Assembly (NCBI GenBank): GCA_038059695.1
Contig: JBBTIZ010000023.1
Coordinates: 13,427 to 77,426, forward strand
Length of the DNA stretch: 64,000 bases
Source of the DNA: Planctomycetota bacterium
GTDB lineage: Bacteria > Planctomycetota > MHYJ01 > JACQXL01
Direction of reading: 5' to 3'
Below the pieces are notes generated by a model. The model was not told the origin of the DNA. It saw only the letters and a program-made list of their open reading frames with translations, and ran no database searches. The translations under genes were made by a program, and so were the position numbers. Positions 1,928 through 53,576 of this stretch are shown here, in pieces. The stretch's first letter is position 1. Each line of letters begins with the position of its first letter.

Positions 1928-3004
1928 TCAAATAAACAAGCGGGGGTAAATCAATTTCCACCACCATTTATGCAGTCCGGCTTGTTGAAGGCATTTGTTT
2001 ATAATCACCTGCTTTTGGGCCCGGTTTGATCCCTCGCCCTGAAAATATAACTCAAAAAGACGCAGGCGGTCTGTATGACTGATGACTACCTTGAGGGAAG
2101 ACCCGGTCTTAAACAGCATCTTGTCTAAGGAACGGTTCAATCGTATCAGGTTATCAATCCTTTTATCAAGAGAAAGTCCTGTCTTGCTGAGCTCATAAGC
2201 GGACTTGTCCAGGTCTATGATATAAGCCGTAAAATCTATTCCTGATTGTTTAATTAGGATATTGCGGATATTCAAATCGCGATGGTTCATCCCGGCATTA
2301 TGGAGTTGCCTGATGGCCTTGACCAACGAAGCAATCAGATTGATTTTCTTGAGGTATAAGACAGGCCCCATTCTGTCATTGCGAGCGATCGAAGGGAGCG
2401 GGGCAATCTCTGTTTCCCGTACTGGTAAGATTGCTTCGTCGCTCCGCTCCTCGCAATGACACTTTTGGGACAGCATAAAACTATCTTGGCGATGCTCGTT
2501 TTCCTTGGCGAGGGAAAATATCGTTTCCTCCAACGTCACCGCATCGGGTATCTTTTTAACAACTATCTTGGCCCGGTAGAAAAACGGCAGGACCCATTTT
2601 ATCTGCAGGCCCAGGATTTCCGGCAATGGCACCCCGCCGGCGCGCCCCTTTTCGGTCAGGACCAGTTCATTCAGAGGCCGCCTGGCATCATTAAATATAT
2701 CCGGCAATACCAAGCCGGCCAGCCCGCCCCGCCGGTAAACCCGGACAATAACCTCAGATTCTTTTCCGGTTGATGATTTTATCCGGGCCACCGGATAATC
2801 ACCCCGGCCTTGGACCCGTCTGGTGCCGTTGGCGCCATCCGGGCAGGCCGTTTCGGAATTAGCCGTACCGTGTCCTTCATCCAGGAGTGAATCAATTGCG
2901 GATTCATAATCAACGTGGATGATACGCCATTCACCGGCTGATTCCTTGACCCGAAAATACGCCGGGATAACCAAATCCGGATAACTGTCATTAATGGTCA
3001 ACAT
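1928..3004 (-). CDS. Lipopolysaccharide kinase family protein (Kdo/WaaP-type), carrying an in-frame palindromic insertion
   Basis: Catalytic loop HRDLNIRNILIK followed by IIDLDKS (PF06293-like). About 33 residues in the middle of the protein are encoded by a palindromic repeat at 2352-2462. Confidence 0.6.
   Translation of the reverse strand: MLTINDSYPDLVIPAYFRVKESAGEWRIIHVDYESAIDSLLDEGHGTANSETACPDGANGTRRVQGRGDYPVARIKSSTGKESEVIVRVYRRGGLAGLVLPDIFNDARRPLNELVLTEKGRAGGVPLPEILGLQIKWVLPFFYRAKIVVKKIPDAVTLEETIFSLAKENEHRQDSFMLSQKCHCEERSDEAILPVRETEIAPLPSIARNDRMGPVLYLKKINLIASLVKAIRQLHNAGMNHRDLNIRNILIKQSGIDFTAYIIDLDKSAYELSKTGLSLDKRIDNLIRLNRSLDKMLFKTGSSLKVVISHTDRLRLFELYFQGEGSNRAQKQVIINKCLQQAGLHKWWWKLIYPRLFI
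2352..2462. repeat. Imperfect palindromic element of tgtcattgcgagcg...cgctcctcgcaatgaca type, located inside a CDS
   Basis: Left arm gtcattgcgagcgatcgaagggagcggggcaatctc and right arm aagattgcttcgtcgctccgctcctcgcaatgac are reverse complements apart from a few mismatches. A related element lies at 53295-53363. Confidence 0.7.
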
Positions 3005-8970: not shown

Positions 8971-10005
8971 ATGCGATACCCGATTATACTATTTATATTA
9001 ATGGACGCTCTGGCGGCGGTCTGCCTGCCCCCCGAAAATATCTGGGTTCGGGCGGACCTGTCTGAGCCGGAAGCGCCGCCCTCTCCGGCCGCCGGCGCCA
9101 AAATCGTAGCCCGGGTCAACGAAAGTTTTATTACCCTGCGCGATGTAGTCCGCCGGGCCACAATTATGGGCGCTAATAATCCCGCCGCGCTCCAGACCCT
9201 GATTGAAGACAAAGTTCTGGCTAACCAAGCCGTCAAGGAAAATATTAAAATCACCGACGAGGAAGGACAAAAGATTGTCAAGGAACGCCTTATCCATTTC
9301 ACCTCTATGGAGGAATTCGCCAAGAATATCCTCACCCCCCTGGGTATGAGCATTGAAGAATATACCGCCGATATGAAGGAACAGTTATTGCGGGAAAAAT
9401 ATATCCAGAGCAAAATCGGCGCCCATCGGCTGGCAGGTAAAAATCCGCCCGAATTTGTCATTGACACCTATGTTTCGCCCAGGGAAATCAAGGAGTTCTT
9501 TGAAGTCAATAAGAAGAAGTTCAACCAGCCCGAAAAGATCAAGGCCCGCCAGATTATCCTCAAGTTCGCGGATGGCGAGGAACGGATAAAAAAGGAATCC
9601 CTGGCCGAGAAAATACTGGCCCGCCTACAAAAGGACGAGGATTTTGCGGCCCTAGCCAAGGAGTATTCAGAGGTCAAGGCCGAGTCAGGCGGCGACTGGG
9701 ATTGGACCGCCAAAGACACCTTTGCCGAGGAGGTGGAACAGGTGCTTTTCTCCCTGAAAGTCGGCGAAATCAGTCCGGTTATCCCAACCGAAAGAAGTTT
9801 CATTATCGCCAAGGTGGAAGACAAGACCGAGTTTAAGCCCGCCTTTGACACCCCGGAGATTCAGGAAGAAATCCGCCGGACCCTGGCCAACCAGAAATTC
9901 GTCCGCGGCGCCCGGGCTATCAAGGACAAACTCCTTAAAGAAGCCAGTATCTACGTGGACCCGGATTTCATAGCGAAACCACAGATTAACACAGATGGAC
10001 ACTGA
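8971..10005 (+). CDS. SurA/PrsA-like periplasmic chaperone with parvulin-type PPIase domain
   Basis: Signal-like N-terminus, SurA_N-like region, parvulin-like segment KARQIILKF...SGGDWDW...FSLKVGEISPVIPTERSFIIAKVED. Confidence 0.6.
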   Translation: MRYPIILFILMDALAAVCLPPENIWVRADLSEPEAPPSPAAGAKIVARVNESFITLRDVVRRATIMGANNPAALQTLIEDKVLANQAVKENIKITDEEGQKIVKERLIHFTSMEEFAKNILTPLGMSIEEYTADMKEQLLREKYIQSKIGAHRLAGKNPPEFVIDTYVSPREIKEFFEVNKKKFNQPEKIKARQIILKFADGEERIKKESLAEKILARLQKDEDFAALAKEYSEVKAESGGDWDWTAKDTFAEEVEQVLFSLKVGEISPVIPTERSFIIAKVEDKTEFKPAFDTPEIQEEIRRTLANQKFVRGARAIKDKLLKEASIYVDPDFIAKPQINTDGH

Positions 10006-10010
10006 TGTTT

Positions 10011-10047
10011 AAAATCCCCTCTAATAAGAGGGATTTAGGGGTGTGTT
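10011..10047. repeat. Hairpin REP-like element aaatcccctctaataagagggatttaggggtgtgtta (copy 1)
   Basis: Near-identical copy at 23058-23093. Stem cccctct/agagggg. Confidence 0.65.
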
Positions 10048-11194
10048 ATCAATCCGCTTACTCCAAAATATGGAAAAGTTCGTCCTCAAACAATTTACCT
10101 GTAAGCCATGGAACGAATTCATTATGTTCCCCTGGAAATCCGGGATTTATAAGAACGACTCTTACTGGGTCCCGCCTTTAATCAGTGAGGACAAGAAACT
10201 ATTCAATCCGGCGGTTTACCCTTTCCACAAGAATGCCGAGGTAAAACTGTTTCTACTCTACGCTAACGGCAAACCAGTCAGCCGGGTAGCTGCGATTATC
10301 AACCACAACCACAATAAATTCCATAATGAGAAGACCGGATTCTTCGGGTTCTTTGAGTGTGTCAATTCGCCTGAGGCAGCCAAATACATCCTGGATGCGG
10401 CCAGCCGATTCTGCCAGGAAAAAGGAATGGAACGCATGCGCGGGCCGATGAATTTCTCCACCAACGACACCTGCGGTATATTGATTGAGGGCTTTGATTC
10501 CCCACCCCTGATTATGATGCCTTACAACCCTGCCTACTATATCGACCTGATGGAAAAGAGCGGGTTTGCCAAGGCCAAGGACCTCTACGCCTACTTTGCG
10601 GACTATCGTATCAAAGAGCAGATTCCCCGTATGGAGCGCCTGGCCCAGAGAGTTACAAAATCCAGCGATGTCGTTATTCGCAACATCAATTTTAAGAATA
10701 TTACCAACGACATCAGGGTCATCAAGCATATCTACAACAACGCCTGGGACAAGAACTGGGGATTCGTGCCCATGACAGACGGGGAATTTGATTATATGGC
10801 GTCTGATATGAAAAAGGTAGTTGACCCTGACCTAGCGCTGATAGCCGAGATAGGCGGCAACCCGGCCGGATTCTCCCTGGCCCTGCCCGATTATAACCAG
10901 ATAATCAAGAAATGCAACGGCCGTCTTTTCCCGTTCGGGTTCCTGCATTTCCTGTTCGGCAAATCAAGCATTGACGCGGTCCGGCTCCTGACCATGGGCG
11001 TGGTCCACCAATACCGCCAAAAAGGATTAGACGTGGTCTTTTACCTGGAATCCATAAAAAGGACATTTGCCAAGGGATACCGGGGTGGCGAACTATCCTG
11101 GATACTGGAGGACAACGTCATGATGAACCGCATCCTTGAATCTATCGGCACAAAGGTCTATAAAAAATACCGCATCTACGAAAGGCCTATTTAG
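10043..11194 (+). CDS. Hypothetical protein, possibly GNAT-fold acyltransferase-like (FemAB/BioF2-like)
   Basis: Long ORF with good coding appearance. Weak resemblance only. Start may be the MEKFVLK Met 9 codons in. Confidence 0.3.
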   Translation: MLSIRLLQNMEKFVLKQFTCKPWNEFIMFPWKSGIYKNDSYWVPPLISEDKKLFNPAVYPFHKNAEVKLFLLYANGKPVSRVAAIINHNHNKFHNEKTGFFGFFECVNSPEAAKYILDAASRFCQEKGMERMRGPMNFSTNDTCGILIEGFDSPPLIMMPYNPAYYIDLMEKSGFAKAKDLYAYFADYRIKEQIPRMERLAQRVTKSSDVVIRNINFKNITNDIRVIKHIYNNAWDKNWGFVPMTDGEFDYMASDMKKVVDPDLALIAEIGGNPAGFSLALPDYNQIIKKCNGRLFPFGFLHFLFGKSSIDAVRLLTMGVVHQYRQKGLDVVFYLESIKRTFAKGYRGGELSWILEDNVMMNRILESIGTKVYKKYRIYERPI

Positions 11195-37514: not shown

Positions 37515-37557
37515 AAGGCACAAAGACACTAAGAAGAAATTAACTGGTCGTTTTCTT

Positions 37558-37586
37558 CGTGCCTTAGTGTCTTGGTGGCTAAATTT
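37558..37586. repeat. 29-nt repeat cgtgccttagtgtcttggtggctaaattt (copy 1); forms a hairpin with upstream aaggcacaaagacactaag
   Basis: Identical 29-mer at 53366-53394. Confidence 0.75.
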
Positions 37587-37660: not shown

Positions 37661-37741
37661 TTGACCTCGCACATAAATTTATTATACTTATATTTATAGT
37701 TGGCTGTATAAACGCGATATAAATTTATGTGCGGGGTTGAC
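37661..37741. promoter_or_regulatory. Inverted repeat (cgcacataaattta / taaatttatgtgcg) with TTGAC boxes in the gcvH-htrA divergent intergenic region; likely operator/promoter
   Basis: 14-bp arms about 38 bp apart. A TTGACA at the right end sits about 45 nt upstream of the htrA ATG, with a possible -10 TATCTA and RBS GGAGGTG. Confidence 0.35.
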
Positions 37742-53294: not shown

Positions 53295-53394
53295 TGTCAC
53301 CCTGAGCGGAGCGAAGGGTCTCGTTAATAATTAGATTCTTCGCCTGAGGCTCAGAATGACACCTTCGTGCCTTAGTGTCTTGGTGGCTAAATTT
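53295..53394. repeat. Composite repeat: tgtcaccctgagcggagcgaagg...cttcgcctgaggctcagaatgaca palindrome (related to the 2352-2462 element) followed by copy 2 of the 29-nt cgtgccttagtgtcttggtggctaaattt repeat
   Basis: Inverted arms tgtcaccctgagcgg / cctgaggctcagaatgaca. The 29-mer at 53366-53394 is identical to 37558-37586. Confidence 0.7.
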
Positions 53395-53547
53395 AAACTC
53401 TCCTGTACTATAAAAAATCCCCCTTGACCCCGTTAGAGATAGGGCATCTTTCTCTGACGACCGTCCTGGCGTAAAACCGCGCGGAATCCACGAAACACCC
53501 AAATAATGATGTTTTATCTTATAATGAACAAAATATCTCTAACGGGG

Positions 53548-53576
53548 TTGACAAAACCGGGGATATCTGCTATAAT
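53548..53576 (+). promoter_or_regulatory. Consensus sigma70 promoter TTGACA-17-TATAAT
   Basis: ttgacaaaaccggggatatctgctataat lies about 50 nt upstream of the 3D-domain gene, which has RBS AGGGAGG. Confidence 0.5.

Follow-up and report, generated by a model that had tools for sequence, protein, structure and literature searches.

A TGTC-tagged, REP-like palindromic dimer inserted in frame into a Kdo/WaaP-family kinase gene of a Planctomycetota bacterium

[quoted passage not shown] The repeats closest to the element treated here are the CGTC-tagged repetitive extragenic palindromes (REPs) defined by Di Nocera, De Gregorio and Rocco in 2013 (BMC Genomics 14:522; PMC3733652). In that paper, the tag is often TGTC, the stems start with A-T followed by T-A, a 3-nt tail is present, head-to-head dimers prevail, no dedicated transposase is assigned, and dimers located in frame inside genes encode 20–30 amino acids; RPE-4 and RPE-6 of Rickettsia are counted among the CGTC-tagged REPs, and an action as RNA elements which make transcripts more or less stable is reported for REPs and MITEs. 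The phenomenon of an in-frame REP-like insertion is already known, and the kinase gene described below is a clean example of it. The gene (1928..3004, minus strand) encodes a protein of 358 residues and lies in a stretch of 64,000 nucleotides from a Planctomycetota bacterium (GenBank assembly GCA_038059695.1, contig JBBTIZ010000023.1, positions 13,427 to 77,426 of the forward strand), hereafter termed the window. It belongs to the Kdo/WaaP-family (InaA-like) lipopolysaccharide (LPS) kinases and carries a segment which very probably represents the tolerated insertion of a non-autonomous palindromic repeat, now translated as part of the kinase.

The insertion became apparent from comparison with 42 homologues, the nearest orthologues having lengths of 303–319 residues. 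In alignments of 19 and 41 sequences, residues 175–215 (SFMLSQKCHCEERSDEAILPVRETEIAPLPSIARNDRMGPV) are present in the window protein only, and the segment is missing from 18 of the 18 aligned orthologues including the nearest one with 82 % identity. On the DNA level, the genes of P0002 and P0004 were compared together with their flanks (P and L numbers denote proteins and DNA loci of this analysis) and clean empty sites were found, namely a gap of 123 nt relative to L001 and of 120 nt relative to L003, which correspond to window positions 2360/2363–2482. The segment without counterpart (2360..2482, minus strand; 120–123 bp; SFMLSQK-CHCEERSDEAILPVRETEIAPLPSIARND-RMGPV in the protein) adds 40–41 residues. 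An initial annotation, made from the bare sequence, had described a palindrome of about 110 bp at 2352–2462 contributing about 33 residues to an LPS kinase and had interpreted it as a MITE/REP-like insertion. The palindrome and the insertion hold, the latter as a dispersed TGTC-tagged REP-like dimer that orthologues lack, while the extent had to be redrawn: relative to the segment missing from orthologues the interval reached 8 nt too far to the left and fell 20 nt short on the right, the palindromic core comprises 88 bp (2374–2461), the inserted block is 120–123 bp long and the peptide is correspondingly larger.

An assembly chimera formed at the repeat, or an ancestral linker lost in all other lineages, would offer a different explanation for the segment. 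Assemblies do break at this repeat, as seen for a contig from the H43 well (L142) which is 93.6–98.5 % identical to the window, agrees with it in the upstream junction and in almost the entire core, and ends within the element. Three independent assemblies, however, cross the whole insert with identical sequence and encode an identical protein (L124, L125 and L126; two are from Hainich groundwater H41 samples, and one is the NCBI metagenome-assembled genome (MAG) GCA_964356845.1), and one contig of this set matches the window with 99.56 % identity along 3.8 kb and with zero differences within the element. Since the segment is, moreover, found in none of about 40 homologues and is a copy of a dispersed repeat, the probability of an artefact or of an ancestral linker is practically negligible. 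Near 10.2 kb, the window and L124/L125 seem to differ in structure, which is due to a scaffold gap of Ns and not to biology.

The insert-bearing gene is intact and apparently constrained. Its assignment as an LPS kinase, already proposed initially, is supported by the Pfam profile PF06293 (59.5 bits compared to a cut-off of 21.3; E = 4e-16), and the kinase motifs indeed continue on both sides of the insert, including HRDLNIRNILIK, as seen in the alignments. The residues H241, D243, N248, D264 and D266 of the catalytic HRD...N and DxD motifs are invariant in the family alignment, and 14 of 14 invariant family residues are kept in the insert-bearing kinase. Pseudomonas WaaP (6DFL) is the nearest solved structure (profile E = 9e-14; Foldseek E = 1e-10), and an identical protein of a Planctomycetota MAG is annotated at NCBI as InaA-family LPS kinase. 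For the KdkA (3-deoxy-D-manno-octulosonic acid kinase) equivalog NF002475 the protein reaches 87.8 bits, which is below the NCBIfam cut-off of 142, and the substrate is therefore left off the assignment. Within the element, the H43 strain differs from the window by two single-nucleotide polymorphisms, one synonymous and one changing Pro to Thr. Over about 200 codons, the two insert-bearing alleles are distinguished by 13 synonymous and 12 non-synonymous codon differences; non-synonymous changes are thus below the neutral expectation, and the kinase gene looks selectively maintained since the insertion.

These data also bear on the possibility that the kinase is a pseudogene or on the way to becoming one, the insertion being inactivating and the open frame fortuitous. 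The implied insertion history with frame-shifting intermediates would be compatible with such a decay, and functional redundancy is possible because of a second Kdo-family kinase a few genes away. The open reading frame (ORF) is, however, intact across four assemblies, all invariant catalytic residues are retained, synonymous changes after the insertion exceed the neutral expectation, and the structural model is confident outside the insert, so that a pseudogene is very unlikely. The second kinase itself, a protein of 555 residues with two Kdo-family kinase domains, is encoded in the same LPS-core cluster just past the left edge of the window (L124 14017–15684) and could provide redundancy for the insert-bearing enzyme.

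The position of the insert in the fold was derived from AlphaFold models, calculated with AlphaFold2 for the window protein and compared with the insert-free orthologue P0004. The window kinase is modelled with a mean predicted local distance difference test (pLDDT) score of 87.8, which decreases to 52–69 over roughly residues 181–210; a helix (158–187) is followed by a coil and by a second helix (214–236) leading to HRDLNIRN. In the P0004 model (pLDDT 90.1), the helices 147–156 and 159–185 are connected by a joint of only two residues. The flanking helices are alike in the models with and without the insert, and the two-residue turn is replaced by a low-confidence loop. The element has therefore opened a tight inter-helix turn.

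The palindromic core (2374..2461) consists of two TGTC-tagged hairpin units arranged as a head-to-head dimer, and was identified by its perfect 12-nt terminal arms (TGTCATTGCGAG at 2374–2385 and CTCGCAATGACA at 2450–2461) and by fold z-scores. The 116-nt region folds as RNA with -50.9 kcal/mol (z = -5.35; 0 of 200 shuffles were as good) and the 88-nt core as DNA with -23.6 kcal/mol (z = -4.99). The nearest-neighbour energies of single arms are not significant, and the evidence for arm hairpins therefore comes from covariation and not from energy. Arm A (2430..2461, minus strand) reads T-GTC-ATTGC-GAG-GAGCGGAGCGA-CGAA-GCAAT-C in mRNA sense and recurs as an identical stretch of 43–50 nt in L139, L144 and L146. 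Arm B on the opposite strand (2374..2407, plus), T-GTC-ATTGC-GAG-CGATCGAAGGGAG-CGGG-GCAAT-C, is the more degenerate unit. Three of the six reading frames are open through the core and two of six through the whole insert. Searches against Rfam at the gathering threshold yielded tRNAs only, and at relaxed threshold one sub-threshold miRNA-hairpin match (23.9 bits compared to a cut-off of 100). A hammerhead or k-turn reading of GAG...CGAA was discarded, as neither the CUGANGA box nor the three-way junction is present and no Rfam match was obtained.

The core is enclosed in a slightly longer element. On the 5' side in mRNA sense it adjoins an outer arm GCTGTCCCAAAAG (2462..2474, minus) common to a composite subfamily with the consensus (C)AGGCTGTCCCAAAAG, and on the 3' side a remnant GAATGGGGCCTGTC (2360..2373, minus) recognised by comparison with L145 and L137. 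In full-length relatives this position is occupied by GAATGrGGC-TTTTTGGACAsCCTG, of which the kinase copy lacks about 12–13 nt. Possible target-site duplications TTAT are located at 2475..2478 (minus; upstream copy in mRNA sense) and 2356..2359 (minus; downstream copy), where orthologues carry a single TTAT or CTAT. They flank an element of 115 bp at shifted boundaries only. As 115 + 4 = 119 nt is not a multiple of three and would shift the frame, either at least one later indel has to be assumed, such as an additional T in the adjacent T-run which brings the length to the observed 120 nt, or TTAT is coincidental. A target-site duplication and hence a cut-and-paste mechanism at the kinase copy are suggestive only. 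An origin of the flanks by fold-back copying of host sequence was rejected since no match to the reverse complements of both host flanks could be recognised by eye.

The composite subfamily was traced by a 20-mer across outer flank and core (CCCAAAAGTGTCATTGCGAG), which occurs in 21 metagenome stretches. The outer arm (C)AGGCTGTCCCAAAAG stands beside the core in L131–L133, L136, L138, L139, L141, L145 and L147 in unrelated contexts, and the 13 nt upstream of the kinase core are therefore considered to belong to the element. The full-length copies L145, L137 and L139 possess outer inverted repeats (CAGGnTGTCCCAAAAG...CTTTTTGGACAnCCTG) with the closing end CTTTTTGGACAnCCTG, and are accompanied by the 4-bp direct repeats TTAA, ATAA and TATT; the outer inverted repeat of L145 spans 32 nt with 84 % complementarity. 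Outer inverted repeats combined with AT-rich 4-bp direct repeats suggest cut-and-paste transposition in trans. The composite element harbours, nested in its loop or its arms, units with other stem boxes (ACCCT, ATTCT, GTTGC; L139 2871–3108, L145 4080–4242 and L137 8004–8165), which points to hairpin units having repeatedly inserted into each other. Two of the further copies originate from the same groundwater well, L137 as a full dimer and L146 as one arm. In tetranucleotide composition they correlate with the window at 0.956 and 0.876, respectively, compared to 0.85–0.92 or higher for 6-kb pieces of the window and at most 0.75 for unrelated loci, and their composition is consistent with an origin from the same or a closely related genome.

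A second head-to-head dimer of the TGTC-tagged superfamily is located between ORFs of the window at 53295..53363 and corresponds to the related palindrome noticed in the initial annotation. Its arms, TGTC-ACCCT-GAG-CGGAG-CGA-AGGGT-CT and TGTC-ATTCT-GAG-CCTCAGG-CGA-AGAAT-CT, use stem boxes which differ from those in the kinase gene and from each other (ACCCT/AGGGT and ATTCT/AGAAT), each arm being self-complementary. A short repeat module CCTTAGTGTCTTGGTGGCTAAATTT abuts this dimer (53363–53390) and is also present at 37516–37580, there as an inverted pair AGGCACAAAGACACTAAG / CTTAGTGTCTTGGTGGCT.

The repeat is not unique, so that the copy count, like the orthologue alignment and the structural models, favours the interpretation of the initial annotation. 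Scanning species-representative genomes with the pattern GTCATTGCGAG-N(8-26)-GCAATCT retrieved matching units in at least 120 genome stretches, which according to their titles represent about 20 phylum-level groups. Among the matches listed are Planctomycetota, Chloroflexota, Pseudomonadota (including a Rickettsiales MAG and a Tisiphia endosymbiont, L117 and L119), Bacteroidota (isolates of Pedobacter, Chryseobacterium and Hymenobacter), Bacillota (Sporomusa and Oscillospiraceae), Patescibacteria, Nitrospirota, Omnitrophota, Desulfobacterota and others, so that cultured isolates, candidate-phyla radiation (CPR) bacteria and endosymbionts all occur as hosts. The unit consists of GTC, a 5-nt box, GAG, a variable segment, C-GAA, C-GTG or C-GCG, the reverse complement of the box and CT(C), with the consensus GTC-ATTGC-GAG-[variable hairpin]-CGNN-GCAAT-CT; the base preceding GTC is T in 52 % of 188 family arms. 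Stem 1 was examined in 238 arms chosen by non-stem features only. In 197 of them the boxes are fully complementary, and of the 56 arms deviating from ATTGC 23 are fully complementary, where permutation yields 4.2 on average and 11 at most. The alternative complementary boxes are ATCGC, ATTCC, ACTGC, ATTCT and ACCGC. Stem 2 is a variable compensated hairpin with terminal stems of at least 4 bp in 38 of 132 distinct segments (1.8 expected); frequently, a C-G pair closes a GCA or GAA triloop. We assign these GNA-type loops to the DNA mini-hairpins of very high stability for which d(GCGAAGC) is the model case.

Head-to-head dimers (75 among the 120 listed loci; 66–124 bp) are the predominant arrangement. 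Same-orientation tandem arrays, described as rare for CGTC-tagged REPs, also occur, as exemplified by three arms about 50 nt apart in a Chloroflexus MAG (L008 1372–1507). No protein family, transposases and other mobility genes included, was found to be enriched within 1.5 kb of the units, in a search of limited sensitivity whose top clusters were histidine kinases, ABC ATPases and Fur. Genes for Fur-family regulators lie within 1.5 kb of a unit in 3 of the 120 listed loci compared to about 0.4 estimated by chance (L014 957–1403, Dehalococcoidia; L048 248–772, Sporomusa; L097 1598–2062, Oscillospiraceae), the L048 unit being positioned just upstream of the gene. In a Patescibacteria locus (L039 556–1838), a gene for a 308-residue IS256/Mutator-family transposase is placed exactly between two head-to-head dimers. 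It has its own inverted ends TAATTAGTACCCTAATGGTTGAT..., and the dimer ends facing it are CTCGCAATGGG and CCCATTGCGAG; either two dimers standing tail to tail served as the target of this insertion sequence, or they are carried along with it.

The stability and distribution of the element are relevant for a possible role on the RNA level, in which a hairpin of about -51 kcal/mol would tune kinase expression by ribosome pausing, RNase III cleavage or transcript stabilisation. The very stable fold and the effects on transcript stability reported for REPs and MITEs in PMC3733652 are in favour of this proposal. The family members are, however, present in every orientation and context, i.e. between genes, inside genes, at their ends and in arrays, which disfavours a locus-specific regulatory role, and the mismatches in stem 1, too few to be decisive, display no strand bias (7 G.T versus 4 A.C). 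An RNA-level role is therefore considered improbable, although it would be compatible with a tolerated insertion.

How does the repeat family relate to described systems? The CGTC-tagged REPs are similar in several respects. TGTC, one of the tags allowed there besides CGTC and CCTC, starts both arms of both window dimers. The stems share the A-T start: ATTGC...GCAAT is commonest, ATCGC, ATTCC and ATTCT begin with AT, and ACTGC and ACCGC keep the A only. Both families occur mainly as head-to-head dimers, including the two window copies, and both are multi-phylum repeats for which no dedicated transposase is known and which have in-frame intragenic copies. The nearest family is CGTC-3, whose published peptides VIAGLDPAIH...ARVKPGHD back-translate in our analysis to the unit start GTCATTGC, similar to that of the present unit. 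In contrast, the published stems are uninterrupted over 8–9 bp with loops of 4–5 nt (variants with ‘loops of different length’ are mentioned as well), whereas in the kinase-element family 5 bp of stem are followed by a conserved GAG / C-G-N-N internal loop and a variable compensated inner hairpin of 3–33 nt, often with a GNA triloop. A short unpaired tail appears to close the units of both; its published consensus is CCA compared to C-T-C or C-T-T here, where the first C is set by the search pattern and is followed by T in 88 % and C in 62 %. Five phyla are given for the CGTC-tagged REPs compared to about 20 among the matches listed here. As tag, A-T start, dimeric arrangement and lack of a transposase fit but stem and loop sizes do not, the repeat appears to be a related, possibly additional, family of the CGTC/TGTC-tagged REP superfamily; it would be none of the four families in their described form, unless it corresponds to one of the variants with other loop lengths.

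RPEs (Ogata et al. 2000 and 2002, as cited in PMC10969869 and PMC3733652) resemble the kinase element as palindromes inserted in frame into unrelated housekeeping genes and encoding an apparently fold-compatible peptide; RPE-1 is longer (about 150 bp), and the present host is a free-living groundwater Planctomycetota MAG. REP doublets forming hairpins (REPINs) and bacterial interspersed mosaic elements (BIMEs) mobilised with REP-associated tyrosine transposases (RAYTs; Bertels and Rainey 2011, PMC3116915) likewise consist of two inverted REP hairpins of about 90–110 bp in total, and are non-autonomous and multi-copy. They differ in possessing a GTAG head and a single-copy RAYT gene with the same REPs on its flanks as well as in being lineage-specific and vertically inherited, whereas the unit described here has a TGTC head and hardly varies between phyla; a motif scan and tblastn of limited sensitivity detected no RAYT, neither within the window nor at the 120 listed family loci. 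A Y1 transposase (IS200-like / RAYT-type; 175 residues) is encoded in L128 (5605–6132), with pmbA on one side and tldD on the other and at a distance of three genes to the P0026 kinase discussed below, and is flanked on both sides by its own REP-like repeats TGGGTGTTAGGCTTTAGCCTAAGG and CCCAGACTGAAGTCTGGCACCCAG, which are unrelated to the TGTC-tagged units. With classical MITEs the element shares terminal inverted repeats (the perfect 12-nt core ends and the outer repeats of full-length copies) and, in its full-length relatives, 4-bp AT-rich direct repeats; in contrast to them, the ends of the kinase copy are degenerate and its duplication is ambiguous. A parental insertion sequence with the ends of the composite subfamily did not turn up, no search having been aimed at one.

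Neither the DNA motif nor the encoded peptides were found printed in the literature searched. It is conceivable, although we consider it rather doubtful, that the unit GTC-ATTGC-GAG-[compensated hairpin]-CGNN-GCAAT-CT constitutes a distinct, structurally constrained and undescribed TGTC-tagged family which is almost uniform in sequence over about 20 phyla, has no linked transposase, is spread by a trans-acting or host-universal single-strand DNA process and serves as a general source of enzyme surface loops.

In-frame copies are not confined to the kinase. Long ORFs contain 2 of the 43 dimers of the genome sample; in the GMP synthase GuaA of L056 the insert is accommodated in the GATase domain (...LD-VIARPRSGAAISKNSEIASEGAPRNDDG-RV...), and another element forms the C-terminal tail of a membrane protein. 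An exhaustive phmmer search of the 41-residue insert against 1.84 billion representative proteins gave 48 matches at E <= 1e-3. Among these are a PrmC methyltransferase with two inserts (CHCEERSDEAIS...ARND), whose TIGR03534 match is split and reaches 194.3 bits compared to a cut-off of 199.1, a 2381-residue GT2/TPR protein (glycosyltransferase), and a DUF2779 protein with six tandem copies; many other matches are spurious ORFs of repeats alone. In the case of P0044, six tandem dimers, another example of a same-orientation array, are translated as the C-terminal 300 residues of a DUF2779 protein. The insert peptide and related peptides matched no NCBIfam model at E <= 1, in a release which we presume to contain RPE models.

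The initial annotation had left open whether the kinase tolerates the insertion or has domesticated it. In the latter case, the insert peptide would have gained a function, for example as interaction surface, in membrane contact or in kinase regulation, and would be kept by selection. The near-invariance of the insert in close strains, with one synonymous and one non-synonymous change in the H43 strain, could be interpreted accordingly, and the turn might be an innovation hot spot, as P0014 also carries an insert there. The insert is, however, limited to one shallow lineage and absent from the nearest orthologue, its pLDDT is low, the peptide is a generic repeat translation recurring in unrelated enzymes and spurious ORFs, and the palindrome is still nearly intact as would be expected for a young unselected insert. 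Tolerance is supported, while the lineage-specific and predicted disordered peptide yields no evidence for domestication, which we regard as highly improbable.

Further indels are found in this kinase family. The insert in P0014 (L127 1204–2256) is an unrelated GC-rich, hairpin-forming segment of 33 residues, SDAERRGDRDAQMRGYSEPEGTAGGDASKGKAL, in the same inter-helix turn, and P0026 (L128 3001–4059) contains three in-frame GC-rich hairpin-forming inserts in other loops. The window kinase gene itself has another in-frame indel of 33 nt (2816–2849, minus; codons about 52–63; GGCCTGCCCGGATGGCGCCAACGGCACCAGACG, roughly ACPDGANGTRR) that is present in similar form in P0002 and missing from the H43 strain and most orthologues. 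Its region has pLDDT values below 50, and codons immediately downstream of it show unusual divergence when the window and H43 strains are compared, which suggests recombination. The Kdo/WaaP kinase family seems to be unusually permissive to repeat-like insertions.

On the basis of these data we prefer a tolerated insertion and propose the following scenario. A TGTC-tagged REP-like dimer, carried inside a slightly longer outer-armed subfamily element, inserted into the kinase gene and landed in the two-residue turn between the post-hinge helix and the helix leading into the catalytic HRDLNxRN loop. Its survival is attributed to four factors: a net added length that is a multiple of three (120 nt), entry in a frame devoid of stop codons, a hydrophilic and predicted disordered peptide, and a turn which also takes unrelated insertions in other orthologues. 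The result would be an active kinase with a presumably neutral loop, and the insert of about 40 residues would be an apparently harmless selfish repeat. Several points weigh against this scenario. Translation and function of the insert-bearing kinase are inferred, and the dN/dS evidence consists of 25 codon differences over about 200 codons. The element ends of the kinase copy are degenerate: the sole clean direct repeat, TTAT, implies 119 nt and makes the assumption of at least one extra indel necessary, which leaves this part uncertain, the 5' outer arm starts with TATG and not with CAGG, and the 3' outer arm is truncated as described above. In addition, the superfamily is represented by two copies only within the 64-kb window.

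The kinase gene is flanked by two GT9 heptosyltransferase-like genes, and the gene order GT9-kinase-GT9-GT2 is kept in L001, L003 and L124. Elsewhere in the window, intergenic short repeat-like modules occur at 9985–10050 (cacagattaacacagatggacactgat, followed by the hairpin aatcccctctaataagagggatttaggggtgtg), which we take to be widespread ‘junk’ repeats of environmental genomes. Long-spaced inverted repeats are located upstream of ORFs at 37664–37737 (19 nt, 95 %, 36-nt spacer) and 53427–53548 (15 nt, 100 %, 92-nt spacer); at least one arm of each is adjoined, before or after, by TTGAC, and they may be operator or promoter arrangements.

For annotation, the finding means that the additional 40 residues of the kinase are repeat-derived and do not constitute a domain, and that many predicted proteins are enlarged or corrupted by this repeat through spurious ORFs, C-terminal tails and split profile matches, as for the PrmC protein just below its cut-off. 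Because two insert-bearing strains can be set beside empty sites, and a model containing the insert beside one lacking it, the locus represents a well-controlled natural experiment indicating that a protein-kinase-like fold can accommodate a REP dimer at a helix-turn-helix junction. The wider family, with its conserved sequence, covarying stems, GNA-type loops and occurrence in about 20 phyla, is more interesting than the kinase itself.

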